A stretch of DNA of 64,000 nt from Candidatus Hatepunaea meridiana (GTDB lineage: Bacteria > Electryoneota > AABM5-125-24 > Hatepunaeales > Hatepunaeaceae), in the NCBI GenBank assembly GCA_030765125.1, contig JAVCDD010000015.1:2939-66938 (forward strand), given 5' to 3'. Positions 23,032 through 64,000 of this stretch are shown piece after piece. Position numbers and translations under genes: made by a program. The first letter of the stretch is position 1, and every line of letters starts with the position of its first letter. The notes beneath the pieces were generated by a model. That model had not been told where the DNA came from. It saw only the letters and a list, made by a program, of their open reading frames with translations, and ran no database searches.

Positions 23032-23070
23032 TTTTCTCTCATTTTAATGATTCTGCTGAAAAACATCCTA

Positions 23071-23283
23071 TTTTGTCATTCCCGCGAAACAGACAGTCCG
23101 AGAATGCTGAAATCCCGCTGGCAGACGCCCTCGTCTGCCAGTTAAGTCCTTGTTTTTTCGTCAGACGAGGGCGTCTGACGACGGGTGAATATCTATTCTC
23201 GGACAGTCTGGAAAGCTGGAATCCAGATGGAGTGTTAAATACTTGAAAACTCTGGATTCCCGCTTTCGCGGGAATGACAAATA
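23071..23283. mobile_element. MITE-A copy (TTTTGTCATTCCCGCGAA... TIRs) interrupted by a nested ~125-bp hairpin element
   Basis: The left TIR is truncated after ttttgtcattcccgcgaaa. It is followed by an insert with its own inverted repeats cagacagtccgagaa/ttctcggacagtctg, carrying GTCAGACG hairpins homologous to 1895..1992. The insert is followed by the MITE-A centre and an intact right TIR. Confidence 0.55.
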
Positions 23284-23319
23284 AATGATCGCAGGCAGAG
23301 ACACCTACGCTACTATCAA

Positions 23320-25158
23320 TTATCGGATTAAAACCATCCGGTTTACAATATTTTCAGTATTGCCCGCATCATATTCAATGGAAATATTGTATAAATAGAT
23401 ACCTGAAGCAACTTCCAAACCACTTCTGTCAAGACCGTTCCAGGTAACACGGTTAGCGCCTGCTTGCTGCATACCGGAAACAAGTTCCTTAACGAGCCTG
23501 CCTTTGATGTCGTAGATCCTTAAGCTGACTTCACCGGATTGCGGAATGCTATAGCTGATCTCGGTTGATGAGTTGAAAGGATTCGGATAGATACCCATTG
23601 CTGCAAATTCCGTAGGCAGAGCTTCGTCGGACAAACCAACGCCCAATGCTGTGCCGACTAACGGGATTTCGAGTATATTCTCGTCGCGATCATTGGATTC
23701 GATGAGCAGGCTGGCTTCATATCTTTGCTCTTCAAGGGGTGCGAAACTGATAGTGACGACGCGGGATGAATCCGGTGAAAGCTCAAACTCCTGCTCTAAA
23801 TCATTGATACGGAACGGTATATTATCCGGGTGAATCGTCCAGCTCTCAATCAGAAGCGGCAGCACACCGATATTCATTATTTCCAGTTCCAATTCCGCTC
23901 TCTCATCAGGTTGAATATTTACAAATTCAACGGTATCGGGTTCAACGTTGATGTTACATTGCGGGTAGAAGAATGCGCCGATGTCGGGGAAGGTGCCATC
24001 AGGGTCAGGGTCTGACTCGGGGTCGCCAGCGTCGATGCAAGGCGAGTCATCGGACAGGTGGAAGTCGTCGTTATCATGATCGATGAATTGAGGATCTTCA
24101 TGAATTACATGATCACTGTACTCCTCAAGCCATTCGCCTTCAATATCGCAATAGGATAAGATCACCTCGTCAACATCTTCATAGAAGTGAACTTGAGGTC
24201 CTTCATAGGCACGGTTTCCCCAGAATATACAGTTCGATACAATACTCCATTCATTAGCCACAACACAGATACCACCACCAATTTCACTTTCGTTAAATAC
24301 GATAGTATTTGAATGGAATCGAAAAGGTCTCGCAGAATGATCAAAATATATAGCTCCACCCGCGTTTCCAGCACTATTATATGAAAAAACGTTATATTGC
24401 ACTTCTGCTAAGGTGAGATGACCCAAGCTTAATGCACCGCCATTGTAACCTGCTTGGTTACCGATAAACATATTTCCTGTTATGGTAAATTCCCCGAAAG
24501 GTGATTCCCAAGTCCCGATTGCTCCACCAGACCCTAAAGCGGAATTATCAATAAACAGGTTCTCAACAACCCTGATATCTCCGGAAAACCTAATACTCAA
24601 TGCTCCACCGCTGACTCCACAATTCTCTATAAATAAGTTTCTTTCAATAGTTACGGGATGGCAAAAATATGTGCATATAGCTCCACCCCACCAGTAACAT
24701 TGATTGTCTGAAAAAGTGGAGTTACTGATATTCAATTCGGCTTCCTCACAATAAAGAGCACTGCCTCGGACGTAGTTATCTTCATCACCTACGATGCAAT
24801 TACTGACTATACAATATCTTAATGTTACCACAGCACCACTATCAGCCCTGATACCACACCAGAATTCCTCGTCTTCATCGGAATGAAAAACTATGGAGTC
24901 ATCTACCGCTCCCTCTGCAAGAAGTTCACCATAAACCAACAGCGAATAGGGACCATTGAAATTTATTATTACACCGGGTTCAATCATCAGTGTATCTTCA
25001 GCGGGGATAAAGATGGTGTCCAGGACGACTACAGGCGAATCGTCGATAGTCCATGTACCACTTACTTCGTCTTCAACTTCAATTGCGTATAGATTATTTA
25101 ATGCAAGTATGCAGAATATTGACAAGGCGACGCAAATAAGTATTTGTTTTTTGTTCAT
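23320..25158 (-). CDS. T9SS cargo protein paralog with pbH1-type parallel beta-helix repeats, conserved Ig-like module and T9SS CTD
   Basis: 612 aa with glycine-rich pbH1-like repeats (SGGALSIRFSGDIRVVENLFIDNSALGSGGAIGT), the conserved module shared with 19739.. and 21391.., and CTD ...GIYLYNISIEYDAGNTENIVNRMVLIR. Confidence 0.75.
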   Translation of the reverse strand: MNKKQILICVALSIFCILALNNLYAIEVEDEVSGTWTIDDSPVVVLDTIFIPAEDTLMIEPGVIINFNGPYSLLVYGELLAEGAVDDSIVFHSDEDEEFWCGIRADSGAVVTLRYCIVSNCIVGDEDNYVRGSALYCEEAELNISNSTFSDNQCYWWGGAICTYFCHPVTIERNLFIENCGVSGGALSIRFSGDIRVVENLFIDNSALGSGGAIGTWESPFGEFTITGNMFIGNQAGYNGGALSLGHLTLAEVQYNVFSYNSAGNAGGAIYFDHSARPFRFHSNTIVFNESEIGGGICVVANEWSIVSNCIFWGNRAYEGPQVHFYEDVDEVILSYCDIEGEWLEEYSDHVIHEDPQFIDHDNDDFHLSDDSPCIDAGDPESDPDPDGTFPDIGAFFYPQCNINVEPDTVEFVNIQPDERAELELEIMNIGVLPLLIESWTIHPDNIPFRINDLEQEFELSPDSSRVVTISFAPLEEQRYEASLLIESNDRDENILEIPLVGTALGVGLSDEALPTEFAAMGIYPNPFNSSTEISYSIPQSGEVSLRIYDIKGRLVKELVSGMQQAGANRVTWNGLDRSGLEVASGIYLYNISIEYDAGNTENIVNRMVLIR

Positions 25159-26059: not shown

Positions 26060-29000
26060 ATGGTTCACCGATTTGCTTTAATTCTCTCGCTGATGGTTTT
26101 CTGCTTAACCATCACAACCGTATCAGCCCAGGAAATCATCGAAGTAGGAGACTTTGATACACCAGGGCTGGCTAAGGACGTTGTCGTCGCCGGTAACCAC
26201 GCATACATTGCGGATTACGGCAGCGGTCTGCGTATCATCAACATATCCGATCCGGAAAACCCTGATGAAGTCGGGGCTTTTGACACTCAGGGGAATGCTT
26301 GGGGCGTCGTCGTTTCCGGTGATTTCGCTTACATAGCTGACTACGCAAGCGGATTGCGTATAGTCAATATTTCCGATCCGGAAAATACCAATGAGGTTGG
26401 TAATTACGACACGCCAAGTCACGCCTTTAGCGTCGTCGTTATAAACAGCCTTGCTTATATCGCAGATGGCGAGGAGTCCGGATTACTCATAATAAACGTC
26501 GCCGATCCGGCAAATCCCGACATAGTTGCAAGCTTTGAGACTGAGGGAACCGCCTTCGACGTTTCCGTTGTCGGTAATCTTGCATACATCGCAGACGCTG
26601 GTTTTCTGCGCATTATTGATGTGTCTGATTTAGACAATATGGTCGAAGTCGGAACTATTGAAACTCGGGGTACCGCCAAAGGCGTAGCTGTCGCCGGTGA
26701 TTATGCTTACATCGCTGATGGCGAAAGCGGGTTGCGTATTATCAACGTATCCGATCCGGAGAACCCGGAAGAAGTGGGGGACTTCAATACACCCGACGAT
26801 GCCAGCGATGTTACCGTTGTCGGCAGCTATGCCTACGTAGCTGACGGTGAAAGCGGTCTTTACATAATTGATGTTTCTAATCCGGAGGAACCGGAAGAAG
26901 CAGGTTCTTTCGATACCCCGAACGAGGCGATAGGCGTCACCGGAAATGATGAATATATATACATAGCAGATAACACAAGCGGTCTGCTTATTCTAAACGT
27001 ATCCGAATTTCACATTCCTATTATTGCCGTTGCCCCTGAAGCCCTTGACTTTGAAGAGGTCGAGTTAAACCAGAGTGCGGAATTGACTTTGACCATCAAT
27101 AACGAGGGTGGTAATGATCTGACCATTTCGGATGTCTCATTAACTGGAGACCACTTCAGCGTTGACTTTGAAGATGAAGTTGTCGTTGAACGAGATGAAG
27201 ACTATGAATTAACGGTAACCTTTGCGCCTGAGGAAATCGGTGAACTACGGGATACTTTAATAATTACATCCAACGATCCTGATAACGGTGAAGTAACCAT
27301 ATTCCTGAGTGGTGTTGGCGTAGGACCGGTTATTTCCATTGATCCCGAGACGATGGTCTTCGGTCAGGTGTTAGTCGGTGAAGCTGGTGAGATGATTATT
27401 ACAATCAGCGACTCTGGAAACACTAATCTAATTGTGTCTGATATTTTAGTTGAAGGCGATTATTTCTACGTTGATTTCGAGCAGGAGTTAGTAATTGAAC
27501 CGAACGGCGCCGCTGAAGTGTCGGTCAGCTTTGCACCTGAAGAATTCCGCGATTGCCAGGGAACACTGACTATTACATCCAACGATCCTAATCGGGATGA
27601 GATAGTTATCAACTTAACTGGTTCTGGGGTTGCAGTAGCCATCCGCGAGGTCGGCGCTTTCAATACGCCGGGCGAGGCGCGGGGCATTGCGGTAGTTGGT
27701 GATATTGCTTACATTGCAGATGGTCAAACCGGTTTGATTATTTTCGATATTTCCAATCCTGCCGAACCGGATTCTCTTGGAGCCTGTGATACGCCTGGTG
27801 ATGCATACTACGTCATCGTCGTAGGTGAATATGCTTACATCGCCGATCAAACAGGCGGTTTAAGGGTAATTAATGTTTCCGATCCAACTGAACCCGAAGA
27901 AGTCGGATACTACGATACTGCCGGTGAAGCCAGAGGCGTTGCTGTGCTTGGGAACTATGCTTATATCGCAGACGGTGATCCAGGTCTCATAGCAATAAAC
28001 ATCTCTAATCCTGAAGATCCGGAGCAGGTAGGAGCATTCAATTCTCCCGGAACGGCAAGGGGTGTCACAATCTCAGGGGAATACGCTTATGTATCGGATG
28101 GAGGAAGCGGTCTTCGTATCGTAGACTTGTTTGATCCACGCAGCCCGGAAGAAATTGGCTCTTTCGATACACCGGGGTGGGCGTTGAGTTCCTTTATCGC
28201 TGGAGATTACGCTTATGTTGCCGACTGGCGCAATGGTATGCAGATCATTGATATATCCGATTTGGAAAATCCTGATTTGGTGAGCTCTTTTGATACACCG
28301 GGTGAAGCTTTGAACCTTGCAATTGTTGGTAATTACGTTTATATTGCTGATTTAGGTAGTGGTCTGCGAATGATCGACGTATCCAACCGTCGTCAACCTG
28401 AAGAAGCCGGATACTTTGATACACCCGGTAACGCAAGAGGCGTTGCCGTAATTGGTGACTATGCTTACGTAGCTGATGGACCGGGTGGATTGCGTATCCT
28501 CGATGTATCTAACATCGGCGAACCCTTACCGTTTATCTCAGTAGCGCCTTTAGAATTGGACTTCGGTGAGGTGATGCTGAATGAAGGTACGCAGTTGGCT
28601 ATAACAATCAGCAATGTTGGCGGTGCTGATCTGACCATTTCAGAAGTTGTCAGCAATTTTGGATGCTTTACAACCGATTTCGAGGATGAGATTGTCCTTG
28701 AACCAGATGAAAGTGAAAATGTAATGGTTACGTTTACACCGGATCATCACGGACTATTTGAAGGAACTATAACCATTACTTCAAATGATCCATTTACCGA
28801 AGAAGTAACTGTTACTCTGCGTGGAAACGGAATTATCGGCGTTATCCATCATATTGGTTTCTTTGATACGGAAGGGCATGCACTGGATGTGGTAATTGAA
28901 AATAATTATGCCTATGTGGCTGACCGGCGAGCTGGAATGAGCATAATCAGTATTGCCGATCCGTTTAATCCGAGTGAAGTTGGATACATCGATTCACCGG

Positions 29001-31234
29001 GTGACGCACGCGGTGTTGCCGTCCAGGGTGATTATGCTTATATAGCGGATTGGAATCAAGGATTGCGTATTATACTCGTCAGCCGTCCAACCCTTCCGCG
29101 CGAAGCTGGATTCTTTGTTACCGATGGAAATGCTCGAGGTGTCGCCGTAGCCGGGAACTATGCTTATGTTGCAATGCAGGAGAGCGGTCTTAGTATCATT
29201 GACATATCCGATCCCGCAGAACCCAGCGAAGTTGGCTCTTTCGATACACCGGGAGCTGCCTATGCCGTTGCCGTTGTTGAAGACTATGCTTATGTCGCTG
29301 ACGGAACAGGTGGACTTAGGGTGATAAATGTTTCAGATCCGCAAGAGCCTCGGGAAGTCGGCGCTTATGATACTGAGGGTCAATCTTATGGCATTACAGT
29401 TGATGGTGAGTTAGCATACGTTGCTGATGGTGACGGCGGTTTACGCATCATTAACATATCCGATCCGGAACATCCTGAAGAAGTGGGAGCATATCAAGAA
29501 TTGGAGCAATCCTGGGACGTTGCTGTTGAAGACGGCTTTGCATACATAGCGGACTATGAAAACGGTCTGCGCTTAATAGACGTTTCCGATCCCGAAAATC
29601 CCAACGAGGTCGGAGACTATGACACTCCTGGACTAGCTTACGGAGTCGCTGCCGCAAACGAGCATTACGCTTACGTAGCAGATTATGATAGCGGATTACG
29701 TATCCTTGACGTATCTGAAGTCATCGGTTGGGAAGCGCAAGATCCTGCTATTATCGTTTCACCGGATGAGTTAATCTTCGATCAGGTTGAGATCGGTCTG
29801 AATCGTAATCTCAACATTACTATTCGCAATGAAGGCAATGCTGATTTGATTGTATCCAATATTTATGTTACTGACAATGCTTTCAGTGTAGATTTCCCTG
29901 ATCAGCTCGCTATAGAGCCCGGCAACAGCGAAGAGATTGTGGTTACTTTTGCACCTGACAGATTCAGCGAATCCGAAGGAGACCTGATTATCGAATCCAA
30001 CGATCCGAATGGCGACGTATCAATCTCTTTGATCGGTTCAGGTGTTTACATTGTGATTAGCGAGATGGGGTATTTCGATACTGAAGGAAATGCTAAAGAC
30101 GTCGCAATCGTGGGTGATTACGCCTATGTAGCTGATGGTGAAGCGGGAATAAGCATAATAGATATTACCGATCTGCAAAACCCCAATGAAGTAGGAACAT
30201 TAGATACACCGGACGAAGCTTTTGCAATTGAGGTAGTTGGTGATTATGCTTATGTGGCAGACAAAGAGAGCGGGTTGCGCGTCATTAACATCTCAAATCC
30301 TGAGCAACCGGAAGAGGTTGGTTCTTATGACACACCGGGAATGGCAAGAGAAGTTGTTGTTGTCGGCAACTATGCTTACGTTGGCGATGGCGCTGATGGT
30401 TTCCGAGTGATTGACATATCAACTCCTGACGACCCACGTGGTACAGGCATCTATAATACACCTGACGAAGCCTGGGGAATCACCATTATCGGTGAATACG
30501 CATACGTAGCGACAAGGGAAAGAGGGTTGCGTATTCTAAACATCTTCGATCCGCAACGTCCAAATGAGGTTGGATTCTACGATACGCAGAGATACGCCCG
30601 CGACGTCAGCGTGTCCGGTGACTATGCTTATGTGGCAGACGGCACCGGCGGACTGGTCGTGTTAAATATTTCTGATCCGGAGCATCCTCGTAAAGAGGGC
30701 GAATTATTAACTATGGACGAAGCTCGCAGTATCACCATCCGTGGAAATTTTGCATTCGTCGCCGATAAGGAAGGTGGATTGCGGATTATTGATATCTCGC
30801 ATCCGGATGATCCGGAAGAGATCGGATTCTATAATACTTCAGACGAGTCTTTCGGAGTTACTGTTGTGGATGACAGATATGCCTACGTAGCGGACGGAGA
30901 GAACGGACTGCGAATACTTGACGTTTCAAACATCCACGGCGTAAACGATCAACAGGATAATCCTATTCCAACGGAATTCAATTTATCGGCAGCCTATCCG
31001 AATCCGTTCAACTCGACTATGAATATATCGTATGACCTGCCCGTCCTGACAAATATTTCATTGCAGATATTCGATGTCAACGGTAGAGTTACAGCAACGC
31101 TTTATTCAGGTGCAAGAGCGCCGGGGCGTTATCATTCAATTTGGAACGGACGCAATTCACCATCAGGCATTTACTTGATTAGGTTGAATTCATCCGATTT
31201 CAATGCTGTACGTAAAGTAGTACTAACGAAATGA
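26060..31234 (+). CDS. giant secreted LVIVD-repeat protein: four ~7-bladed LVIVD beta-propellers separated by choice-of-anchor-D Ig-like domains, with T9SS C-terminal sorting domain
   Basis: 1724 aa from the ATG at 26060 (track ORF begins at an upstream TTG). Signal peptide MVHRFALILSLMVFCLTITTVSAQ. Contains >25 copies of a ~40-aa unit G.YAY[IV]AD...GL[RV]I[IV][DN][IV]SDP.NP.EVG.[YF]DTPG.A.GV.V. Ig-like segments such as ELTLTINNEGGNDLTISDVSL...ITSNDPDNGEV appear four times. C-terminus AAYPNPFNSTMNISYDL...IRLNSSDFNAVRKVVLTK. Confidence 0.8.
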   Translation: MVHRFALILSLMVFCLTITTVSAQEIIEVGDFDTPGLAKDVVVAGNHAYIADYGSGLRIINISDPENPDEVGAFDTQGNAWGVVVSGDFAYIADYASGLRIVNISDPENTNEVGNYDTPSHAFSVVVINSLAYIADGEESGLLIINVADPANPDIVASFETEGTAFDVSVVGNLAYIADAGFLRIIDVSDLDNMVEVGTIETRGTAKGVAVAGDYAYIADGESGLRIINVSDPENPEEVGDFNTPDDASDVTVVGSYAYVADGESGLYIIDVSNPEEPEEAGSFDTPNEAIGVTGNDEYIYIADNTSGLLILNVSEFHIPIIAVAPEALDFEEVELNQSAELTLTINNEGGNDLTISDVSLTGDHFSVDFEDEVVVERDEDYELTVTFAPEEIGELRDTLIITSNDPDNGEVTIFLSGVGVGPVISIDPETMVFGQVLVGEAGEMIITISDSGNTNLIVSDILVEGDYFYVDFEQELVIEPNGAAEVSVSFAPEEFRDCQGTLTITSNDPNRDEIVINLTGSGVAVAIREVGAFNTPGEARGIAVVGDIAYIADGQTGLIIFDISNPAEPDSLGACDTPGDAYYVIVVGEYAYIADQTGGLRVINVSDPTEPEEVGYYDTAGEARGVAVLGNYAYIADGDPGLIAINISNPEDPEQVGAFNSPGTARGVTISGEYAYVSDGGSGLRIVDLFDPRSPEEIGSFDTPGWALSSFIAGDYAYVADWRNGMQIIDISDLENPDLVSSFDTPGEALNLAIVGNYVYIADLGSGLRMIDVSNRRQPEEAGYFDTPGNARGVAVIGDYAYVADGPGGLRILDVSNIGEPLPFISVAPLELDFGEVMLNEGTQLAITISNVGGADLTISEVVSNFGCFTTDFEDEIVLEPDESENVMVTFTPDHHGLFEGTITITSNDPFTEEVTVTLRGNGIIGVIHHIGFFDTEGHALDVVIENNYAYVADRRAGMSIISIADPFNPSEVGYIDSPGDARGVAVQGDYAYIADWNQGLRIILVSRPTLPREAGFFVTDGNARGVAVAGNYAYVAMQESGLSIIDISDPAEPSEVGSFDTPGAAYAVAVVEDYAYVADGTGGLRVINVSDPQEPREVGAYDTEGQSYGITVDGELAYVADGDGGLRIINISDPEHPEEVGAYQELEQSWDVAVEDGFAYIADYENGLRLIDVSDPENPNEVGDYDTPGLAYGVAAANEHYAYVADYDSGLRILDVSEVIGWEAQDPAIIVSPDELIFDQVEIGLNRNLNITIRNEGNADLIVSNIYVTDNAFSVDFPDQLAIEPGNSEEIVVTFAPDRFSESEGDLIIESNDPNGDVSISLIGSGVYIVISEMGYFDTEGNAKDVAIVGDYAYVADGEAGISIIDITDLQNPNEVGTLDTPDEAFAIEVVGDYAYVADKESGLRVINISNPEQPEEVGSYDTPGMAREVVVVGNYAYVGDGADGFRVIDISTPDDPRGTGIYNTPDEAWGITIIGEYAYVATRERGLRILNIFDPQRPNEVGFYDTQRYARDVSVSGDYAYVADGTGGLVVLNISDPEHPRKEGELLTMDEARSITIRGNFAFVADKEGGLRIIDISHPDDPEEIGFYNTSDESFGVTVVDDRYAYVADGENGLRILDVSNIHGVNDQQDNPIPTEFNLSAAYPNPFNSTMNISYDLPVLTNISLQIFDVNGRVTATLYSGARAPGRYHSIWNGRNSPSGIYLIRLNSSDFNAVRKVVLTK

Positions 31235-33099: not shown

Positions 33100-33129
33100 C
33101 GTCTTATCTTGTTCAACTCAATAAAATAT

Positions 33130-33230
33130 ACAAAATCAGTAGAAGCGACACTCTTGTCGCTTGAATGTTAGATTTACCACAACTTTGTAAGCGACGCAAG
33201 CGACAAGAGTGTCGCTTCTACTGATTTTGT
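33130..33230. mobile_element. MITE-C (33-bp TIRs ACAAAATCAGTAGAAGCGACACTCTTGTCGCTT)
   Basis: Perfect terminal inverted repeats flank a 35-bp centre; a second copy with the same TIR core lies at 40149..40240. Confidence 0.55.
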
Positions 33231-33277
33231 AACTCTTTAATAATTGAAGAATAAACGCTATTTTTAAAGGGAGTATC

Positions 33278-36200
33278 ATGAAAACAAACAAGAACTTATT
33301 CCTCATTTCAGCGCTTATAGCAATAATATGCTTTCAAGTAAACACTGCCGGCGCTGCAAACTGGTACGATCTATATGCACGCGGAACCAGACTGATGAAG
33401 AAGGAAAACTACGACAAGGCAGCCGAATGCTTTGCTAATGCGCTGAAACAGAACGATTCGGATAATCCGCGTGTTCGTACTTCAGGAATGCGCTTTATTA
33501 AATACTACCCACACAGAGAACTGGGTATATGCTATTACAATCTGGGTCGGTATTCAGAAGCTATGGAACAATTACGGGTTTCAATCCGGCAGTCTTCTAC
33601 CTCCAGTGCAAAGAGTTATCTGTCATTGGCTGAAAAGCAGATGGTTAATGTTCAAAATCAGATTAAGCAAGACAAGATAAAACAGGACGCTCTCGCCAGG
33701 GAAGCTCAAGAACGGGAAAAACAAGAAAGAATTAAAAAGAACGAACTCGCCAGGATAGAGTCGTCTGATCTGGGAGTCGCGGGTCAAGAATCCCACATAG
33801 AGATTACTCCATTGAAGAGGTTGAAGGAACAACCTGGATTGGTTGTCAGTATGGCATTCAGTCCCGATAGCAAATACTTAGCAAGCAGAAGCGGCAGCAA
33901 CATCCAACTATGGAATACTGAAACCGGTTCAAGCGCCGGGAAACTTACCGGGCATTCAGATGGTGTCTGGGATCTATGCTTCAGCGGGGATGGACAGCTT
34001 GCAAGCGCCAGCTTTGATGAAACTTCCAGGTTGTGGTCTATTGTAAACAAGCAATCAACCAGAACAATAACCGGACATTCGGCAAAGGTTCGGGCTGTTG
34101 CTCTCAGCCCTGACGGCAAGAGGCTCGCAAGCGGTGACGGGGATGGTATTATTAAACTATGGGATATGCAAAACGGACAGGAATTGAAATCGTTCAATCA
34201 TTATAACCGATGGATCAATACACTTGAGTTTAGTCCAAATGGATCCATACTTGCGAGCGGAGATGGCAATGGGACAATCAAACTGTGGAATATATATAAC
34301 GGTGAAGAGATTAAAACGCTTAAAGGACATTACGAAAGAGTAGATGTAGCATTCAGTCCGGACGGAAAGTATCTCGCCAGCGGTAGCAAAGACACAAAGA
34401 TTAAAATATGGGATGTTGAGAACGGCAATGTGATCAGAACATTGGAGGGACATACTTCCTCTGTCAATTCGATCTGCTTCAGTCCGGACGGCTTTTGGCT
34501 GGCAAGTGGAAGTGGGAAATGGGACGGTGGAGGCGAGAACAATTCGGTCAGGATCTGGTTAGTTGGCAGCGGTCAGGAAGTTAGAAAAATAAAAGCCTAC
34601 AATACTGTCTATTCAGTTGCATTCAGTCCGGATGGCTCTATGCTCGCCGCTGGAAGCGGGGATTATAGCACTGCCAAAGGTGAAGTCGAACTGTGGCGGG
34701 TTAAAATGCACAAACCGGAATTCGGTCTTCCTCCAAACCTGTTTGCCGAACTTAGCTTTGAAGATGACAATGGTAACGGTATACTCGATGCGATGGAATC
34801 AGCGCTGTTGGAAGTAACCCTCTATAACAAAGGGAAAGGTACTGCCCATCTTCTGCAGATTTGTATTGAGGACGATCAATATGATCCTGAACTGAAAATC
34901 GGAGGGAATGTAGTCTGGGAGTTACCCTCTAAAAATCAGACGAAAGTCACTATTCCTATTAGAACAGGCATGGACCTGAAATCTGCAAAACACCGGTTTA
35001 AAATCAGTGTTCTCGAGTACTTCGGATATGATATGGATCCAGCATACCTATCGCTCAACACGCAGGAATATTCGCCTCCAAAACTTGTCTATTCCGGTAT
35101 GGACATTGATGATTGGAGTGAGGGAACCGGCGGCAATGATGAGGATGGTCAGTTGCAGGCTGGTGAACTGGTTAAAATGAAGATTGTTGTGCAGAATATT
35201 GGTCAGGAGCCTGCGCTTAATACGAAATACTCCGTCAGAAGCGATGATAATAATATACGCCTCAAAGAAGGATACGGCACACTCGGCACAATAAAACCAG
35301 GGGAAGTCAAGGAATTTTGGATCACCATCAGTCCAAACAAACGTGTTACAACTGAGGATGATCTGCCCGTTTATCTGACGATGACTGAATCGATAGGCAA
35401 AGGCAAACTTTTAAATTTCCAGTTACCGATAAAGCTCAACCAGAAGCCTCCCCAAATGAATGTTGTCGAGGTCAAACCGGATTTGTCGCGACTCCAGCAA
35501 CAGATCGCAAAGTTTGAATACACATCTTCTAAATTCAAGACCCGTATTAAAAAGAAAGAAGATGTATGGGCTGTCAAGCGGTCTCGTTCGAGTCGACCGA
35601 ATTCTACAGCAGTCGTGATAGGCGTAGAAAATTATAAAAAACTTGCGCCGGCGCCATTTGCTGCAAGAGACGCTGATCTAATGGAAAAGTATTTTAGGGA
35701 GCTGCTTGGTGTTGATAATGTTGTTCTGTATAAGGATAACGACGTCTCAGGTATGGTGTTCGATGATATTTTCAACCCTGACAATGGTGAACTTCAGACG
35801 TCAATTATCCAAGGGGAAACAGAACTGTTTGTATATTACTCCGGTCACGGCATCCCGAATAAAACCGGTTCAGAGGTATATCTTGTTCCTTCTGATGTAA
35901 AAATTCACCGGCTTGAAGAACAGGGATACAGCTTGAACAAGTTCTATAAGAATCTGAGCGAGTTGGGCGCTAAAAATACGATGGTGATACTCGATGCCTG
36001 TTTCAGCGGTGGGTCGCGTTCAACCGGCAGTATAAAAGAAGAGAATCTCGTTGCACACAAGGCTGTTGGACTAAAGATCAAGGAGCCGTGGCGGACTTAT
36101 AAGAACTTTACGGTAATAAACTCGTCAACCGGTAGTGAGACCTCGTTGGGATTTGACCAGTCGGAGACAGGGCTGTTTACCTACTATCTGGCATTAGGAC

Positions 36201-36358
36201 TGAAAGGCAAAGCTGATGACAACAATGACCAAAAGGTAACGGTCGGTGAACTCAAACGATACGTAATCGCAAACGTAAAGGAAACGTCGAAGAAGATGTT
36301 AGGTTTACAGACGCCGCAATTCTACGGTGATGAGAGTCGGGTGTTGGTGGAGTATTAA
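33278..36358 (+). CDS. secreted multidomain protein: signal peptide - TPR - coiled coil - WD40 beta-propeller - Ig/CARDB-like domains - C-terminal caspase-like (peptidase C14) domain
   Basis: 1026 aa. About 8 WD40 repeats (TGHSDGVWDLCFSGDGQLASASFDETSRLWS; GHTSSVNSICFSPDG...). C-terminal caspase His/Cys dyad contexts YYSGHGIPN and MVILDACFSGGS. Confidence 0.7.
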   Translation: MKTNKNLFLISALIAIICFQVNTAGAANWYDLYARGTRLMKKENYDKAAECFANALKQNDSDNPRVRTSGMRFIKYYPHRELGICYYNLGRYSEAMEQLRVSIRQSSTSSAKSYLSLAEKQMVNVQNQIKQDKIKQDALAREAQEREKQERIKKNELARIESSDLGVAGQESHIEITPLKRLKEQPGLVVSMAFSPDSKYLASRSGSNIQLWNTETGSSAGKLTGHSDGVWDLCFSGDGQLASASFDETSRLWSIVNKQSTRTITGHSAKVRAVALSPDGKRLASGDGDGIIKLWDMQNGQELKSFNHYNRWINTLEFSPNGSILASGDGNGTIKLWNIYNGEEIKTLKGHYERVDVAFSPDGKYLASGSKDTKIKIWDVENGNVIRTLEGHTSSVNSICFSPDGFWLASGSGKWDGGGENNSVRIWLVGSGQEVRKIKAYNTVYSVAFSPDGSMLAAGSGDYSTAKGEVELWRVKMHKPEFGLPPNLFAELSFEDDNGNGILDAMESALLEVTLYNKGKGTAHLLQICIEDDQYDPELKIGGNVVWELPSKNQTKVTIPIRTGMDLKSAKHRFKISVLEYFGYDMDPAYLSLNTQEYSPPKLVYSGMDIDDWSEGTGGNDEDGQLQAGELVKMKIVVQNIGQEPALNTKYSVRSDDNNIRLKEGYGTLGTIKPGEVKEFWITISPNKRVTTEDDLPVYLTMTESIGKGKLLNFQLPIKLNQKPPQMNVVEVKPDLSRLQQQIAKFEYTSSKFKTRIKKKEDVWAVKRSRSSRPNSTAVVIGVENYKKLAPAPFAARDADLMEKYFRELLGVDNVVLYKDNDVSGMVFDDIFNPDNGELQTSIIQGETELFVYYSGHGIPNKTGSEVYLVPSDVKIHRLEEQGYSLNKFYKNLSELGAKNTMVILDACFSGGSRSTGSIKEENLVAHKAVGLKIKEPWRTYKNFTVINSSTGSETSLGFDQSETGLFTYYLALGLKGKADDNNDQKVTVGELKRYVIANVKETSKKMLGLQTPQFYGDESRVLVEY

Positions 36359-36430
36359 GCGGATATCTTCGTATTTGATTGTGTCGCTACAAAGTTGTTA
36401 GAAGCATTCGAAGAAGATCATTTCCGTGCT

Positions 36431-36573
36431 GATGGGAATCCAGATTCCGAGAACGTTCAGCAGGTCGTTATACTGCAGCCTGGAACAGCGTGAACGCACC
36501 ATCCGGTATCTATTTATTGCGATTAGAGTCGCTTGATTTCAATGCTATGTGCAAGGCTGTGCTTGTGAAATGA
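36431..36573 (+). pseudogene. orphan T9SS C-terminal-domain fragment
   Basis: The frame reads (stop)WESRFRERSAGRYTAAWNSVNAPSGIYLLRLESLDFNAMCKAVLVK*. It aligns with the giant protein's terminus GRYHSIWNGRNSPSGIYLIRLNSSDFNAVRKVVLTK, but no upstream coding body exists. Confidence 0.45.
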
Positions 36574-36706
36574 TATAATGGTAAAATATGGGGACAGCAG
36601 TGATACTTGTCCCCATATTTACAAAGATCACATTAGCCTCGACATCGTTAGTCCGGTCAACATCGGAGAAGATATATAGAATTATTTTCTCGGAATATCT
36701 CTTTAT

Positions 36707-36891
36707 CGGTTATGCCTTTAGCTCAGCAATGTATAAACCTAATAACACCGGAGTAGCGAAGCTTGCTGCGCGTCCACTTAACAATACCGGAAGTAGTAAA
36801 GCTTGCTGCGTTCTTGCACTGTGGCGCATGCGTGTCTGCTTGCGAGCGCGCAGCAAGCTGCGCTACTCCGGCTGAGCTAAAGGCATAACCG
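36707..36891. mobile_element. MITE-E (TIRs CGGTTATGCCTTTAGCTCAGC) flanked by a 9-bp direct repeat TCTCTTTAT (target-site duplication)
   Basis: TSD copies at 36698..36706 and 36894..36902. Internal sub-palindrome ccggagtagcgaagcttgctgcgcg...cgcgcagcaagctgcgctactccgg. A second copy begins at 63841. ORFs 36588..36875 and 36723..36977 inside it are spurious. Confidence 0.6.
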
Positions 36892-37247
36892 ATTCTCTTT
36901 ATTTCTTTCCAATCATTAAAAATCCAATCTAAAATCTCACACGCTACCCGTTTGATCTCTTTTAGCATGATGATCATCTTTTAGAAGGCGATAGAGGCGA
37001 TAACGAAGTTGCGTCCATTACCGGTGACAAGGGATTTAGCACACCTTATGCGTTGAGATACTTGATTTTCCATCGTGTGCTATCTATATTGTGATAAGTG
37101 GAAAAACACAAACCACTATACAGGCAGGAGCGCGACTATGCCACCATTATTGCAGGGATATGAAAATCCCAGGACAGTATCCTTCGGGCGCCTCCAAACT
37201 TTTCATGTGGCACGGTCAGGCAATGACCAGAAAAAGAGAGGAATAAC

Positions 37248-38540
37248 ATGGCTAAAATAGAAGGATTCAGAATTCAAAATTATCGTGTGTTGAAAGACGT
37301 GACACTCGGAAAACTTTGGAATATGCAACAAGCACAGCCACTAACGCCGTTGACAGCCGTTATTGGGAAAAACGGTGTCGGCAAGAGCTCTCTGTTTGAT
37401 GCATTCGGCTTCCTTGCTGATTGCTTGAAATTGGGTGTCGAAGAAGCTTGTGATACCAAAGGGCGGGGAGGGTTTGATCGTATTCGCTCTCAAGGGAGTG
37501 ATGATCCGATTGAGTTCCAGATATATTACAAGCAAGATGGAAATGCCCGACCGATCACCTATGAACTTGCCATTGACACAGATAAAACTGGTCGTCCTTA
37601 CGTAAAACAGGAACGTTTTCGTCAAAGACGTAAAGGACAAAATCGTGGCTGGCCCTTCTCGTTTCTTATGTTAATCGAAGGCAAAGGAGCCGTGTGGAAA
37701 GGCGAGGAATTGGGACTACAGAGTGACGAAGGTAAGAGTCCTCTCAACTTTATACAGTTGATGGAGATAATTAATGCAGAATCACCAAAAGAGGAGAGCC
37801 ACGAAACGGAGGTTATTGAACTGCAAGACAAGCGTAAGCTTGGTATTGCAACCCTTGGTGCGCTGAAGCAACATCCTCGAATATCGGCTTTTAGACAGTT
37901 CATCGAAGGATGGTATTTGAGTTACTTCACTCCAGACGCAGCCCGCAGCCTGCCCTTGGCGGGTCCACAAAGGCACTTGAGTATCCACGGTGACAATCTT
38001 GGCAATGTTGTCCAGTTCATGCAGCGTGAACATCCTAAACGTTTTGCGAGTATCCTCAATCGCATTGCTGAAAAAATCCCTGGAATTGACAAGATTGATA
38101 CTAATCAAAGTCAGGATAAACGATTACTTCTCCGTTTTAACGACAAAGGTTTTAATGACCCTTTTTACGCTCAACAAATGTCTGATGGCACACTAAAAGT
38201 CTTTGCCTATCTGCTTTTATTGGAAGATCCAACACCGCCACCTTTCATCTGTATTGAGGAGCCTGAAAACGGTCTTTATCACAAACTCCTTGAAACTCTT
38301 GCAACTGAATTCCGTACACATGCAACCGGAAGGAAAAACGCACCACAACTCTTTATCACAACTCATCAACCATATTTTGTCGATGCACTCGCACCGGAAG
38401 AGACATGGTTACTTGAAAAAGGTTCGGATGGTTTTTCGACTATCCGCAGAGCAAGTGATGATGAAACCGTCAACGCAATGGTGGAGGAGGGATTACCTCT
38501 TGGGAGTCTCTGGTACAGCGATTACCTTGATGCAAGGTGA
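37248..38540 (+). CDS. ABC-type AAA ATPase (AAA_21/AAA_15-like; OLD/AbiLi/RloA-like ATPase component)
   Basis: 430 aa with Walker A VIGKNGVGKSSLFDA, ABC signature-like QMSDGTLKVFAYLLLL, Walker B PFICIEEPENGLY and H-loop FITTHQPYF. The stop overlaps the start of the next gene (ATGcaaggTGA). Confidence 0.7.
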   Translation: MAKIEGFRIQNYRVLKDVTLGKLWNMQQAQPLTPLTAVIGKNGVGKSSLFDAFGFLADCLKLGVEEACDTKGRGGFDRIRSQGSDDPIEFQIYYKQDGNARPITYELAIDTDKTGRPYVKQERFRQRRKGQNRGWPFSFLMLIEGKGAVWKGEELGLQSDEGKSPLNFIQLMEIINAESPKEESHETEVIELQDKRKLGIATLGALKQHPRISAFRQFIEGWYLSYFTPDAARSLPLAGPQRHLSIHGDNLGNVVQFMQREHPKRFASILNRIAEKIPGIDKIDTNQSQDKRLLLRFNDKGFNDPFYAQQMSDGTLKVFAYLLLLEDPTPPPFICIEEPENGLYHKLLETLATEFRTHATGRKNAPQLFITTHQPYFVDALAPEETWLLEKGSDGFSTIRRASDDETVNAMVEEGLPLGSLWYSDYLDAR

Positions 38541-39198
38541 ACCAGTGCACTTTGAAATACTTGTTGAAGATAAGTCAGGGAAAATCGCATTGGAATCTTT
38601 TTTGGGAAAAATACTTAGCCCAAACGGGCAAGATCACACCTATAAAGTAATTTCCTACAAAGGAATTGGACGCATTCCAAGAAATCTAAGAGGAACAACA
38701 GATCCGCAGAAGCGGATTCTTCTGGATCAATTGCCCAGGTTACTCAGAGGATATGGGAAAAGTTTCCGAGAATATCATCATGCAGTTGTGGTGGTCGTTG
38801 ACCTTGATAATAAGAATTGTCTAAACTTCAAACAAGAACTCCTCAATGTGTTATATGCCTGCAATCCAAAGCCAAAAACACTGTTCAGAATTGCGATAGA
38901 GGAAGGCGAAGCATGGTTATTGGGAGATCGTAACGCCGTAAAAACTGCCTACCCACATGCAAAAGTGCGGGTATTAGACGCTTATGTACAAGACAGCATT
39001 TGTGGTACGTGGGAAAAGCTTGCAGATGCAATCTATCTGGGTGGATCACAAAAACTTAAACAAATGGGATACCCCCTTACGGGACAGGCTAAGTGCGAAT
39101 GGGCGAAAACAATAGCTCCCCACTTAGATGTGGAGAATAATCAGTCGAAAAGTTTCCAAGTTTTTCGTGATGGAATCAGAAATCTGGCGGGATCGTGA
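38530..39198 (+). CDS. small TOPRIM-like protein (DUF4276/RloB-like), partner of the upstream ATPase
   Basis: 222 aa from the ATG at 38530; the track ORF 38203.. carries a spurious N-terminal extension inside the ATPase gene. Conserved Glu in strand 1 (HFEILVEDKSG) and DxD motif (AVVVVVDLDNKN), consistent with a TOPRIM nuclease fold. Confidence 0.55.
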   Translation: MQGEPVHFEILVEDKSGKIALESFLGKILSPNGQDHTYKVISYKGIGRIPRNLRGTTDPQKRILLDQLPRLLRGYGKSFREYHHAVVVVVDLDNKNCLNFKQELLNVLYACNPKPKTLFRIAIEEGEAWLLGDRNAVKTAYPHAKVRVLDAYVQDSICGTWEKLADAIYLGGSQKLKQMGYPLTGQAKCEWAKTIAPHLDVENNQSKSFQVFRDGIRNLAGS

Positions 39199-39234
39199 CC
39201 TGATGAATGATTATGTTGAAAAGTCAATTATTAT

Positions 39235-40131
39235 ATGAACACACCCATCCCTTACCTCGGTGAATCCCTTGCCTTACTAACAGCATTTATCTGGGCGTCT
39301 GCAGTTATTCTGTTCAAGAAGAGCGGTGAATCGGTTCACCCTATAGCGCTCAACCTCTTTAAGACCGTGATGGCTACTGTTTTAATCATCCCTACGATGT
39401 GGCTGTTTGGTGAGACCTTCTTTCGTCCGGTTTCAACGAGTGATTATATTCTTTTACTATTAAGCGGCGTCATCGGCATCGGTTTATCGGATACGATGTT
39501 CTTTAAGAGTCTTAACTTACTCGGCGCTGGATTGTCAGCGATTGTCGACTGCCTATATAGTCCGTTTATTATTGGGCTGTCGGTATTATGGATCGGTGAG
39601 CGGCTAAATGGCTGGCAGGTTTTAGGCGTAGTGATGATTGTAGCTGCTGTACTTACTGCGACAAGTAAGGAAAAGCAGAACCGTATCAGCTCACGTAACC
39701 TAATATGGGGGATAATATGGGGCGTGGCAGCGATGGCGTCTATGGCGGTGGGAATTGTGATGATTAAACCAATGTTAGAACACTCTCCGGTGCTGTGGGC
39801 GACTGAAGTGCGGTTGATTGGCGGTGGTATTACACTGATCCTGATCTTATTGTTTTATCCATCACGCCGGGCGGTTATTAACTCTCTATTAAAATCACAC
39901 AATTGGAAATATACAATCTCTGGTTCGTTTCTGGGAGCATACCTGGCAATGATAGTCTGGTTGGCAGGAATGAAGTTCGCTCAAGCTTCAATAGCATCAG
40001 CGCTAAATCAAACTTCCAATGTTCTCGTTTTTATTTTTGCTGCTATCTTGTTGAAAGAACCCGTTAATACCCGTAAGATTATTGGGATTGGACTGGGGGT
40101 TGGGGGAGCCTTTCTGGTAACTTTTGGATGA
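39235..40131 (+). CDS. DMT-family (EamA-like) transporter
   Basis: 298 aa, ~10 TM segments, two EamA-like halves. Confidence 0.7.
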   Translation: MNTPIPYLGESLALLTAFIWASAVILFKKSGESVHPIALNLFKTVMATVLIIPTMWLFGETFFRPVSTSDYILLLLSGVIGIGLSDTMFFKSLNLLGAGLSAIVDCLYSPFIIGLSVLWIGERLNGWQVLGVVMIVAAVLTATSKEKQNRISSRNLIWGIIWGVAAMASMAVGIVMIKPMLEHSPVLWATEVRLIGGGITLILILLFYPSRRAVINSLLKSHNWKYTISGSFLGAYLAMIVWLAGMKFAQASIASALNQTSNVLVFIFAAILLKEPVNTRKIIGIGLGVGGAFLVTFG

Positions 40132-40148: not shown

Positions 40149-40240
40149 GAAAAATAGTAGAAGCGACACTCTTGTCGCTTTGGCAATGTCTCTGAAACTC
40201 GAAAGCCCAAGCGACAAGAGTGTCGCTTCTACTATTTTTC
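40149..40240. mobile_element. MITE-C second copy
   Basis: TIR gaaaaatagtagaagcgacactcttgtcgctt ... aagcgacaagagtgtcgcttctactatttttc, followed by the (CAACATYA)n tract at 40278..40314. Confidence 0.55.
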
Positions 40241-40318
40241 AAGGGGTGGCACAGGCAATAAATAGCCTGCGCCACCCAATCACAACATCTCAACATCACA
40301 ACATTACAACATCAAGAA

Positions 40319-42939: not shown

Positions 42940-43224
42940 TGGACTCCTCCATTTATAAAAATAGATTTTATAATTTCGAGATGTTGCGATGTTGTGATTT
43001 ATTTTTTTCTTTCACGTTTTGTATTTGATTAAGTAAGGTAGGTAATCAGGTTCCTATTAGTATAGTGATTAATTGACGGGAATTCAAGTATATTTTAAAA
43101 TCAAGCGTCTAACAGAGAAATATATTAACTATTATGCATCAGTTATTGCTAATATTACGTAATCACTATATATTACATAAATGGAGAAAACACTGACACT
43201 TACTAAATCGGAGTACAAACCCGC

Positions 43225-46499: not shown

Positions 46500-46890
46500 C
46501 AGGTAGCGTAGGGCGGGATCTTATCCCGCCGAACTGCTTTTCTTGATAATGAAGATGTCCGGCAATACTTACTATTAATGATCCTGTTGAAATACTTCCC
46601 ATTTTGTCATTCCCGCGAAGGCGGGAATCCAGTTTAAAGAGTTTAAATACTTGAAAACTCTGGATTCCCGCCTTCGCGGGAATGACAAAGTGGGAAGCAA
46701 ATTCTGTAATAATTGACTTTTTCAACAGAATCATTAATCCGACCGTTTAATAGTTGACGTTGCGTTGCTGTCAGGTTACGCTTCGCTTGAAACCTGACGG
46801 GAACGTGTATATTATTAAGCGGTCTGGTTAATAATTTGAGTGATGTTAGACTTACGGCGGGTTAAGAACCCGCCCTACGTTTCAGGATTA
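46500..46890. repeat. composite nested palindromic region inside the efflux operon, containing a MITE-A copy at 46596..46697
   Basis: Outer inverted repeats cgtagggcgggatcttatcccgcc / ggcgggttaagaacccgccctacg; middle inverted repeats ttaatgatcctgttgaaa / tttttcaacagaatcattaa; inner MITE-A TIRs cttcccattttgtcattcccgcgaaggcgggaatccag. ORF 46423..46734 is spurious. Confidence 0.55.
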
Positions 46891-47036
46891 CCTTCAACAA
46901 GCAATTTATCAAGGTAAAACAGAGTTCAGAGTTCGGCATTTAGATTGTTTTTCCTTCTCGAACTAACGAAGTGAATTCTAAATCAAACACACTAAAGTGC
47001 GAACTCTGAACTCTATTTCTAAAGGAATATTAAATT

Positions 47037-49448
47037 ATGAACCTATCCGATGTAAAACTATCCTGGCGAACCCACAAGAAGAGTCCGCTCTTCGCGGTAA
47101 TCAACATACTTGGCTTGGCTGTGGCTATGGCTGCGGTTATCCTGATTGCTATTTACGTTCGTTATGAACTCAGCTATGATGCTCATTGGAAGAATGCCGA
47201 CAGAATTTACCGTGTGAATGGCGTCTGGACTACCGAAACCGGTGAAGAGATCACATCGCCAACCAGCGTGGGGGCTCTGAAAACCGCATTTGACCGAGAT
47301 ATTCCCGGCATTGAAGCAAGCGCGAGAATCGTTGACTTTGGCTGGCTTGAATATATATCCACAGAAAAAGCTTCCGCGCAAGTACTGATTCCAATGGCAG
47401 ATTCAACACTTTTAGATGTTTTTGATATTAAACTTCTTAAAGGTGATCCCAACACCGCATTGAGCGTCCACAATTCGGTTATCATAAACGAATCGTCAGC
47501 AAAGAAATTTTTCGGTGATGAGAACCCGATAGGAAAAAATTTAGAATTCAAAGCAGGTGCTTTCTATACTGTGACAGGCGTTTTCGAGGATATCTCTCAG
47601 CCGACACATCTAAAAAAGTATGCAATGTTTAACGGAATGCCGAGAATCTGGATCAATGACAATTGGGGATTTGAACTCCCTAATACGTATGTTATGCTCC
47701 AGGAAGGCGTAGATCCACATTCATTGCAACCGGCTTTGGATTCACTCGTTAAACCGCATGTTAAAAATCTTTCTTCTCAAGAAGGAAAGGTGTTCCGACT
47801 CGATCTCCAACCCGTTCGCGATATTCATCTCTATTCTACTCTATCAAATAGATTCTCATGCTGCGAAGAAAACACCACTCCAGCGATAGAAAACATCAGG
47901 TTGTTTTCCGGTGTCGGATTGCTCATTTTGATAATAGCTTGTTTAAATTTCATTAACCTTTCCTCTGCACGCAGTGCAGCCCGAGGAAAACAGGTTGGGA
48001 TTGCTAAGGTGGTTGGAGCCACGCGAGGCAGGCTATTCCGGAGCTTTATGCTCGAATCGATAGTTATGACAACCGGTTCAATGGTGATCGCCTTGTTGAT
48101 CTCAGGATTGCTATTGCCACATTTCATAAACATTTCCGGCATAAACCCGGATGTTGTTCAACTATTAGATTTAAGGTCCCTCGGGTTATTAGGATTATTT
48201 ACTGTTACTGTCGGCTTATTGGCGGGCTGTTATCCGGCTGCTTTTTTATCAGGTTTTCGTCCGGCTCAGGTTCTTAAGGGAACTCTTAGCCAGGGCTTAA
48301 AAGGATCTAAGCTGAGAGCTATATTAGTGATTTTCCAGTTTTCTATCTCGATAGCGCTTATAACCGGAATATTGATTGTCCATAATCAGATTAGTTACAT
48401 ATTCAATAAACCGCTCGGTTATAACATAGAAAACATCGTTATATTGGATCTGATGAGATTCCAGGGTGATTGGAGCGAGGAAGCTTTCATCAACGAATTA
48501 AGTTCATTGCCGGGAGTTGTTGATTTGACGACATCGCTCATGGTCCCGTTACTTGCAGGAGTCAATTGTTCAGGACCGGGTGAATGTTTTATACCTGGAT
48601 CCAACGATGAAATTTTAAATCCGCATTTTATGAAAGTAGGAACGAATTTTCCACAAATGTTTCAAATGAACTTGTTATCCGGCGCGTGGCTTGATAAAGA
48701 GATAAATTATGATAAAAATAACATCTCAATAATCATTAACCAGACAATGGCAAAGCGGTTGGGGTTCGATGATGCGGTTGACAAACAAATAAAGTCTCCT
48801 ATAAATGATGGAACTCGAACGTATACAATCATCGGTATAGTTGAGGATTTCCATTTAAAATCTCTACATTCGCGAATTGAACCAACCTTTTTAGTACCTA
48901 ATTGCAAAACCATTTGGAAGATACTGCTCAAGCTCGATCCAAACGACATACCCGGAACATTGACTGCTGTAGAGAGAATTTGGCTGGAATTAGGTCCACC
49001 GGTGGTTTTTAATTATCAATTTCTCGAAGATGTTTTTCGGCAGATTCATTCGGCTGACAAACGGTTTCAGGAAATTTTCATCAACTTAACTCTACTGGCG
49101 ATCTTCATTGCCTGTCTGGGTCTGTTCGCTTTGGCTGCTTACGCCGCAGAACGACGAACGAAGGAGATTGGCATCCGCAAAGCCCTGGGGGCATCAGTAT
49201 CCGGGATAGTAATGCTACTGTCGAAGGAATTCCTTATTCTAATAATGATCTCAAACGTGATAGCAACGCCGATAGCTTACTATTTTATGCAGCGTTGGTT
49301 GGAGAACTTTGCCTATAGGATTAGTATTGGAACAGGGGTTTTCCTGTTCGCAGCCATCCTAAGCGTACTGATAGCTTTACTCACCGTCAGTGCTCATGCT
49401 GTTCGAGCGGCAATGATGAAGCCAGTGGATTCGTTGAGACATGAATAA
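47037..49448 (+). CDS. ABC transporter permease, FtsX/MacB-type with two FtsX domains
   Basis: 803 aa; N-terminal TM + periplasmic MacB_PCD-like domains + FtsX 4-TM bundle, repeated twice. Confidence 0.8.
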   Translation: MNLSDVKLSWRTHKKSPLFAVINILGLAVAMAAVILIAIYVRYELSYDAHWKNADRIYRVNGVWTTETGEEITSPTSVGALKTAFDRDIPGIEASARIVDFGWLEYISTEKASAQVLIPMADSTLLDVFDIKLLKGDPNTALSVHNSVIINESSAKKFFGDENPIGKNLEFKAGAFYTVTGVFEDISQPTHLKKYAMFNGMPRIWINDNWGFELPNTYVMLQEGVDPHSLQPALDSLVKPHVKNLSSQEGKVFRLDLQPVRDIHLYSTLSNRFSCCEENTTPAIENIRLFSGVGLLILIIACLNFINLSSARSAARGKQVGIAKVVGATRGRLFRSFMLESIVMTTGSMVIALLISGLLLPHFINISGINPDVVQLLDLRSLGLLGLFTVTVGLLAGCYPAAFLSGFRPAQVLKGTLSQGLKGSKLRAILVIFQFSISIALITGILIVHNQISYIFNKPLGYNIENIVILDLMRFQGDWSEEAFINELSSLPGVVDLTTSLMVPLLAGVNCSGPGECFIPGSNDEILNPHFMKVGTNFPQMFQMNLLSGAWLDKEINYDKNNISIIINQTMAKRLGFDDAVDKQIKSPINDGTRTYTIIGIVEDFHLKSLHSRIEPTFLVPNCKTIWKILLKLDPNDIPGTLTAVERIWLELGPPVVFNYQFLEDVFRQIHSADKRFQEIFINLTLLAIFIACLGLFALAAYAAERRTKEIGIRKALGASVSGIVMLLSKEFLILIMISNVIATPIAYYFMQRWLENFAYRISIGTGVFLFAAILSVLIALLTVSAHAVRAAMMKPVDSLRHE

Positions 49449-51858: not shown

Positions 51859-52252
51859 CTCCGCTGAAACAGATATGAATTGAACCCATCTCCTCCTTAC
51901 TTCCGGTAATTTTACAACTATTTTACATTCTGAAGTAGCAAAAATTTCCATTTGCTGATTTGCTTTAATATATTTGGGTAAATCACGATCTGGTTTGTTA
52001 ACCGAATTTGAAGGAAAATCTCATGAGCAGAATTATAAAGAACTTCCGTCTATTGGCAATAATAGTCTGCATGGTTGCCGTTCTGTTGTTGCAGTTGCGC
52101 AGCAGTTACCTCATCGAATTCTGGTAGCAAGCCTTTTATAATAAGTGGAAATACGATTTTCGACATACTGAGCAACTGATCAGCGGTCTTATTCGTGATA
52201 AACTTACTGAAAAAAGAAACAACACTTAAGAGAATATAATCTGGAGGTTTCA

Positions 52253-63608: not shown

Positions 63609-63840
63609 GGAAATTTTCCCTAAACGTAAGCGGCTCCATATTGTGTTACTCGCTTTTCTTCATTGAGGGCGTATCGAACTTAACGAGCCGCTTGCGCTGT
63701 CGGTTTGACCGTTGTTGAAGGCGTCCGTTCTGAAAAAATAACCCTGGAAACGACGAGACACAAGCCTCCGGTTGGGGCGATGCTGATATTGATGTTCGAT
63801 AGCCTCACCAAACCGGGACCTCCCTCAAGAATAAACAGTT

Positions 63841-64000
63841 CGGTTATGCCTTTAGCTCAGCAATGTATAAAATTAATAACACCGGAGTAGCGAAGCTTGC
63901 TGCGCGTCCACTTAATAATACCGGAGTAGAAAAGCTTTCTGCATTCTCGTACGGTGGCGCATGCGTATCTGCCTGCGAGCGCGCAGCAAGCTTCGCTACT
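63841..64000. mobile_element. MITE-E second copy (truncated by window end)
   Basis: cggttatgcctttagctcagcaatgtataaa...ccggagtagcgaagcttgctgcgcgtccactt, nearly identical to 36707..36891. Confidence 0.55.

Follow-up and report, generated by a model that had tools for sequence, protein, structure and literature searches.

The spacer between a WD40-caspase gene and an AAA_21 ATPase gene, within the 64,000-nt stretch of DNA analysed here (hereafter the window, meaning the whole of that stretch), holds a short element with complementary ends, and the question raised by this locus is what kind of element it is and by what means it arrived there. From the letters of the DNA it had been predicted to bear the signature of a transposase-mediated insertion, a view which is now supported both by target-site duplications (TSDs) found at most complete copies of the family and by terminal inverted repeats (TIRs) shared with an insertion sequence (IS) of the IS1595 family. 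The TIRs and flanking repeats, together with the fact that a transposase-bearing IS has the same TIRs, point to a miniature inverted-repeat transposable element (MITE) of the IS1595 type. It is considered very probable, on these sequence comparisons, that the element is a non-autonomous MITE which depends for its movement on an IS1595-family DDE transposase acting in trans and which enters AT-rich spacers by way of a short staggered cut.

The element and its flanking repeats

The coordinates of the features discussed are collected in Table 1. When measured from CGG to CCG the core of the element (MITE copy 1) is 185 bp in length, and the terminal (A)T, 1-2 nt per side, probably belongs to it as well, its size being 185-189 bp according to the boundary that is chosen. 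The original prediction of a 185-bp element lying between direct repeats is therefore right for the core but not for the stretch between the repeats, which is 187 bp.

Table 1. Positions in the window of the two MITE copies, their component repeats and the duplicated gene fragment.
Feature	Position	Strand	Remarks
Left direct repeat TCTCTTTAT	36698..36706	.	Target-site duplication, length ambiguous (7-9 nt)
MITE copy 1	36705..36893	+	Core CGG...CCG at 36707-36891, 185 bp
Left TIR CGGTTATGCCTTTAGCTCAGC	36707..36727	+	Repeat finder
Internal tandem units, 39-40 nt	36747..36811	+	ACCGGAGTAGCGAAGCTTGCTGCGCGTCCACTTAACAAT followed by a second, partial unit; spacing 40 nt
Right arm of internal inverted repeat	36847..36871	+	Pairs with 36748-36772; with the TIRs gives a near-continuous hairpin
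Right TIR	36871..36891	-	Perfect reverse complement of left TIR; repeat finder
Right direct repeat TCTCTTTAT	36894..36902	.	Exact; AT (36892-36893) between repeat and TIR
HK-gene duplicate	63793..63840	+	48 nt; matches 57881-57928 at 47/48; abuts left TIR of copy 2
MITE copy 2	63841..64000	+	Same orientation as copy 1; AAAATTA subfamily; cut by end of window

The TIRs and the internal sub-palindrome that had been noticed in the letters were both recovered by the repeat finder. The arms of the TIRs are 21 nt long and 100% complementary (23 nt if the adjoining AT is counted), the core of the 25-nt end being CGGTTATGCC, and the two arms of the internal inverted repeat, each of 25 nt, are 96% complementary. 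The window contains the 21-mer of the TIR at three places, the last being the start of copy 2, compared to 0 occurrences in 100 dinucleotide-preserving shuffles. Whichever strand is considered, the whole of copy 1 folds as one hairpin, with energies of -105.8 and -103 kcal/mol (z = -12.8 and -10.0, respectively). Two ORFs overlap the element (95 and 84 aa) and neither has a match in Pfam; scans of the whole window against Rfam, at gathering thresholds, and for tRNAs also returned no match.

Exact direct repeats are present at both of the predicted positions on either side of copy 1, although 9 bp could not be upheld as the sole length of the duplication since the offsets vary among copies. The AT which lies between the right repeat and the TIR gives rise to two readings, either CGG...CCGAT with a 9-bp repeat or ATCGG...CCGAT with the 7-bp repeat TCTCTTT. 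It had been anticipated that the case for an insertion would weaken if other copies were without flanking repeats; exact direct repeats of 8-10 nt were in fact found at the ends of nine of the 11 complete MITE copies, the two with no clean direct repeat being those on contigs L044 and L052. Among 156 mismatched pairs of left and right flanks, which served as a control, one pair reaches 8 nt and one reaches 7 nt, and the difference between 9/11 copies and 1/156 control pairs indicates that the duplications are a property of the family and not the product of chance.

The length of the duplication was approached through the repeat offset, that is, the distance between the two copies of the repeat, measured from CGG and CCG. 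This offset is 10 nt in L039 and L040, 11 nt in window copy 1, L033 and L030, and 12 nt in L012, L014, L028 and L047. A model in which the element is CGG...CCGAT with a 9-bp TSD was rejected as five copies (L014, L028, L039, L040 and L047) do not fit it, as was a model of TCGG...CCGA with a fixed TSD length, for which no one length suits all copies; indeed, no single combination of TSD length and boundary was found to fit every copy exactly. The offsets of 10-12 nt fit a putative duplication of 8 bp together with 0-2 element-borne nucleotides of terminal (A)T per end. The AT content of the flanks climbs to 0.8-1.0 over positions -12 to -1, and at all 53 distinct ends, those of the MITE and of the IS taken together, the base preceding CGG is T and the second base before it is always A or T.

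Dispersed copies in public data

When 185,579 species-representative genomes were scanned for exact matches to the TIR, these were found in three MAGs of uncultured bacteria, nearly always at contig ends, and a slightly degenerate scan of the JGI metagenomes gave 42 contigs, while a scan of viral contigs gave 0 matches. The elements with paired TIRs fall into two size classes, one of ~145-262 bp, which is the MITE family, and one of exactly 993 bp. The MITE-type ends have 21 distinct right-end flanks and 18 distinct left-end flanks. The search for further copies, which had been put forward as a check on the prediction, thus yielded at least about 22 distinct insertion sites in public metagenomes, with two copies lying within the window. 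It is unlikely that these sites represent one locus which has been assembled repeatedly, because their flanks are unrelated. Many of the copies sit at contig ends, as is expected of a dispersed repeat.

The MITE contigs come mostly from the samples Ga0075114, Ga0075115 and Ga0208279, and their GC content (0.40-0.47) matches that of the window. Two of these samples, Ga0075114 and Ga0208279, also hold pieces of the window which are 100% identical to it: L037, which corresponds to positions 35899-37085 and includes MITE copy 1, L054, which matches from 37140 to 39822, and L056, which matches from 37142 to 39810. We infer that the window and the metagenome copies come from one genome lineage.

Between copy 1 and the copies of the MITE at other loci the identity is 92-100%. 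The bases that follow the left TIR (AACCTA, AACTTA and AAAATTA) divide the family into three subfamilies, the two copies in the window falling in different ones. In the alignment the 39-nt internal unit is present twice in the canonical form, once in L030, three times in L028 and four times in L039 and L052, and it is this variation in the number of units which gives elements of 145-262 bp. A solo left MITE end of 59 nt, followed by unrelated sequence, was seen in L031 (2309-2367; the same site is found in L016) and is a decayed or truncated copy, and a diverged copy is present in L047. Other non-autonomous elements with the same TIR and different interiors were found in other MAGs (L007, L001, L013, L048 and L053).

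The second copy in the window begins at the position that had been given for it and runs to the end of the window. Aligned with copy 1, it is 97% identical in its first 86 nt and 88% identical in the 76 nt that follow. It had also been noticed that a 49-bp fragment of a histidine kinase (HK) gene is duplicated beside this copy; the duplication is real, but its length is 48 nt, of which 47 are identical. The source of the fragment lies inside the HATPase_c gene at 56394-58052 on the minus strand, and the gene which adjoins copy 2 is not the HK gene but encodes a T9SS-tail protein (60546-63608). Two possibilities may account for the fragment, an aberrant transposition which carried donor flank along with the element, or a join made by the assembler from a strain-variant insertion in the HK gene. 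A more elaborate reading would have an IS1595-type enzyme pair the right TIR with a cryptic end located 48 nt beyond the left one, so that host DNA moved with the MITE in a bacterial analogue of transduplication, and would at the same time give the interior of 39-nt repeats and hairpin a host function, for example as an RNA or protein-binding module upstream of the HEC-01 pair described below; we regard this combination as very improbable. The left edge of the HK fragment was inspected for a cryptic TIR, but the resemblance is weak, gapped and not convincing.

The empty site of copy 1, as reconstructed in silico, would read ...TCGGAATATCTCTTTATTTCTTTCCAATC.... No empty-site allele was found, as the four contigs recovered by look-up of the ATPase all begin to the right of the element; exact-protein look-ups for the caspase-WD40, the T9SS-tail protein, the HK (with two start codons) and the ABC protein gave no record of these proteins; and BLAST of all the fetched loci against the window revealed no insertion site which is occupied elsewhere but vacant in the window.

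The IS1595-family partner and competing explanations

The elements of 993 bp, found in L027, L046, L050 and L058-L061, are bounded by the identical 21-nt TIR and have one ORF of ~300 aa. This ORF matches Zn_ribbon_IS1595 (PF12760; E = 1.7e-19) and DDE_Tnp_IS1595 (PF12762; E = 2.5e-28) in Pfam as well as transpos_IS1595 in NCBIfam (NF033547; 190 bits against a cut-off of 75), by which the element is a predicted insertion sequence of the IS1595 family. The ORF ends ...AELKA*, encoded by GCTGAGCTAAAGGCATAA, inside the right TIR of the IS; as the stop codon (TAA in GGCATAACCG) is located within it, this TIR also encodes the C-terminal residues AELKA (L027, L046 and L050). The prediction had been held vulnerable to the TIRs proving to be without any transposase-bearing partner, and this IS, whose TIRs are the same base for base, is such a partner. 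Among the plasmid-borne IS1595-family transposases in PLSDB none exceeds 45% identity to that of this IS, hence the IS itself appears to be an undescribed member of the family; the protein database holds 3,298 relatives of the transposase at E ≤ 1e-30, none of them informatively named. A single-copy relative (L065), which lies on long contigs and was seen on 11 contigs, is flanked by the 9-nt direct repeat ATTCTTTTA; the offset here is 11, which is compatible with 8 bp plus terminal nucleotides. No TSD was found at the multi-copy IS contigs (~1 kb, three or more), presumably reflecting collapsed or chimeric assembly.

The proposed mechanism is as follows. A DDE transposase of the IS1595 family, with a zinc ribbon at its N-terminus and a DDE_Tnp_IS1595 domain, would bind and cut at the termini of 21-25 nt, and this transposase would be supplied in trans by the 993-bp IS with the same ends. 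It would join the ends of the element to an AT-rich target that is cut with a stagger, the repair of which would leave the short direct repeat on either side. The part derived from the IS would be the ends only, with the interior consisting of one to four of the 39-nt tandem units and a complementary arm, which would together form the long hairpin. Mobilisation by the IS transposase and a stagger of 8 bp are what we infer from the shared ends and from the offsets.

Whether such movement continues in the source lineage depends upon the whereabouts of the partner. No copy of the IS was found by tblastn within the 64-kb window, the TIR matches from Ga0075114, Ga0075115 and Ga0208279 are all of the MITE type, and exact look-ups of the transposase (P0001, P0130, P0131 and P0135) led to other samples only; copies of the IS have been seen only in metagenomes and MAGs other than the samples that carry the window organism. 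The absence of the partner from the TIR matches of the source samples means that the element may be an orphan in the source genome. It is accordingly possible, though we think it unlikely, that this is a real IS1595-type MITE which is now a fossil in its lineage, having spread with a former partner IS or through cross-mobilisation by an IS that resided on a transient mobile element, and that it no longer moves. Such a history would agree with there being no IS-type ends among the ~35 TIR matches from samples carrying the window organism and, conversely, no end of the window-MITE type among the TIR matches seen from three IS-carrying JGI samples (Ga0307990, Ga0307991 and Ga0214473) and from the CAZAGU and CAYLYZ MAGs; it would also agree with the divergence of the copies into three subfamilies at 88-97% identity and with the decayed copies in L031 and L047. 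However, the copies in L012, L043, L017 and L022 lie at different loci and are 98-100% identical, which suggests recent movement. Moreover, a multi-copy IS of 1 kb is easily missed by metagenome assemblies with a 1-kb cut-off, and a partner with diverged TIRs would escape a scan for the exact pattern.

A second question is how the MITE was derived. Only the terminal 22-27 nt are common to the MITE and the IS: the left end of the MITE continues like the right end (IRR, the transposase-C-terminal end) of the L050-type IS, with CAGCAAT and a match of 25-27 nt, and its right end continues like the left end (IRL), with CAGCC and a match of 22-24 nt. That each end of the MITE resembles a different end of the IS would be in keeping with the classic route to a MITE, internal deletion of the IS, in place of the capture of unrelated DNA between IS ends. 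However, BLASTN with a word size of 9 gave no similarity between the MITE interior and the IS beyond those 22-27 terminal nt, and the interior is made of its own 39-nt tandem units, so that derivation by deletion is judged improbable. The weakest alternative, that the element is a repeat of the REP/BIME type or a regulatory or terminator hairpin which was spread by recombination or by another enzyme (e.g., a RAYT-type HUH transposase) and that the flanking repeat arose by chance in AT-rich DNA, draws on the very stable hairpin, the intergenic position between two same-strand genes and the several other palindromic repeat families in the genome, but is extremely improbable given termini which are base for base those of an IS1595-family IS, the excess of direct repeats over the control pairs and the lack of an Rfam match, in addition to which REP elements are not known to have TSDs.

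Genomic setting and comparison with known systems

The IS1595-type MITE favoured here lies 348 nt past the stop of the WD40-caspase gene (33278-36358) and 355 nt before the AAA_21 ATPase gene (37248-38540). The ATPase and the DUF4276 protein encoded next to it (38500-39198) match the candidate defence pair HEC-01A/HEC-01B of PADLOC, with 657 and 312 bits, respectively. The element had been placed between the caspase gene and an ATPase/TOPRIM module, and the placement is correct, the module being the HEC-01A/B pair of AAA_21 ATPase and DUF4276 protein. Whether the hairpin affects read-through between the flanking same-strand genes is a matter of speculation; a promoter and terminator scan of 36300-37300 gave nothing above shuffles.

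The suggestion that the MITE marks the boundary of an island was not borne out, as the element is simply located in an AT-rich spacer and the assembly breaks are found ~240 bp further to the right and at 39810-39822. The contigs of four independent assemblies (JGI 3300025649, JGI 3300005919, ENA ERZ27315452 and Logan SRR5458848) start at 37133-37142, and those of three of the four end at 39810-39822, inside an EamA gene. The breaks at ~37140 and at 39810-39822 suggest that the population has a segment which branches or varies, and the positions 37133-37142 and 39810-39822 are better candidates than the MITE for the edge of that segment. Att-like repeats linking the breaks at ~37140 and 39815 were sought and dismissed, the two having merely an 8-mer in common.

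Other repeats were observed in the window. A hairpin repeat family (AGTAGAAGCGACACTCTTGTCGCTT and its complement) is present at 33109-33251 and 40149-40240, with 94% identity between the two loci, and brackets the block from the WD40-caspase gene to the EamA gene, which holds MITE copy 1 and the HEC-01 pair. A palindromic repeat family (TTTTGTCATTCCCGCGAAGGCGGGAATCCAG and its complement) is found at 12663-12751, 23235-23281 and 46595-46697, with a variant at 16776-16855; contig L043 has a 95% copy of the repeat at 46595-46697 (3279-3381), beside a copy of the MITE, and shorter matches to this family occur in MAG JABMRV01 (L007) and in L053. Arrays with a period of 8 nt (ATGTTGTA-like), in inverted blocks, are located at 16683-16911, 40278-40313 and 42956-43008, and similar arrays are seen in L044 (~3870-4230) and L040 (~190-550). 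In both of these contigs a copy of the MITE is centred in an inverted (ATTGTTNN)n array, from which it follows that the insertions are nested. The window also contains a long gene with many 126-nt (42-aa) repeats of the YAYVADG..GL.IIDVS type and two tandem paralogous gene sets with periods of ~1.9 kb and ~2.4 kb (26141-31000; 17800-24000; 47000-53100).

The value of the finding lies largely in annotation, in that a MITE family and its IS1595-family partner are defined in an uncultured lineage with T9SS-tail proteins. The many contigs that end inside the MITE, copy 2 likewise running off the end of the window, explain the fragmented short-read assemblies of the source organism, and the element provides a marker for insertion polymorphism at the level of the strain. 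Knowledge of transposition is unchanged by it; what remains odd is that a fragment of a host gene adjoins copy 2 and that the duplication varies in its apparent length. Both the IS and the MITE appear to be undescribed, while IS1595-family MITEs as such are already on record.

In the IS1595 family of ISfinder (Siguier, Gagnevin & Chandler 2009, summarised in PMC8101967) the TSDs are usually 8 bp long, and each element encodes one transposase, which bears a zinc finger at its N-terminus. The partner IS resembles these elements in its size of ~1 kb, in its single transposase with Zn_ribbon_IS1595 and DDE_Tnp_IS1595 domains, and in its short TIRs, AT-rich targets and putative direct repeats of ~8 nt. 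The MITE has the exact TIRs of this partner but differs in having no transposase and in sharing only 22-27 nt at each end. The eukaryotic Merlin transposons and their MITEs (Feschotte 2004, cited in PMC8101967) are alike in having a related DDE_Tnp_IS1595 catalytic domain and TSDs of 8-9 bp; however, Merlin and IS1016 are without the zinc ribbon and have TIRs which begin GG, and there is no direct relationship to the MITE of the window. A close parallel by description is the IS1595-related MITE of Haloquadratum walsbyi, which is 165 bp long and present in seven copies, with an IR of 25, a DR of 8 and ISHwa6 as its putative partner (PMC3852290, Table 4). Compared on this basis, the two share their size class, a similar length of TIR, duplications of ~8 bp, their multi-copy state and their pairing with an IS1595-family IS, but the H. 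walsbyi element has an archaeal host, whilst the MITE of the window has an internal 39-nt repeat of variable number and occupies at least 22 sites.
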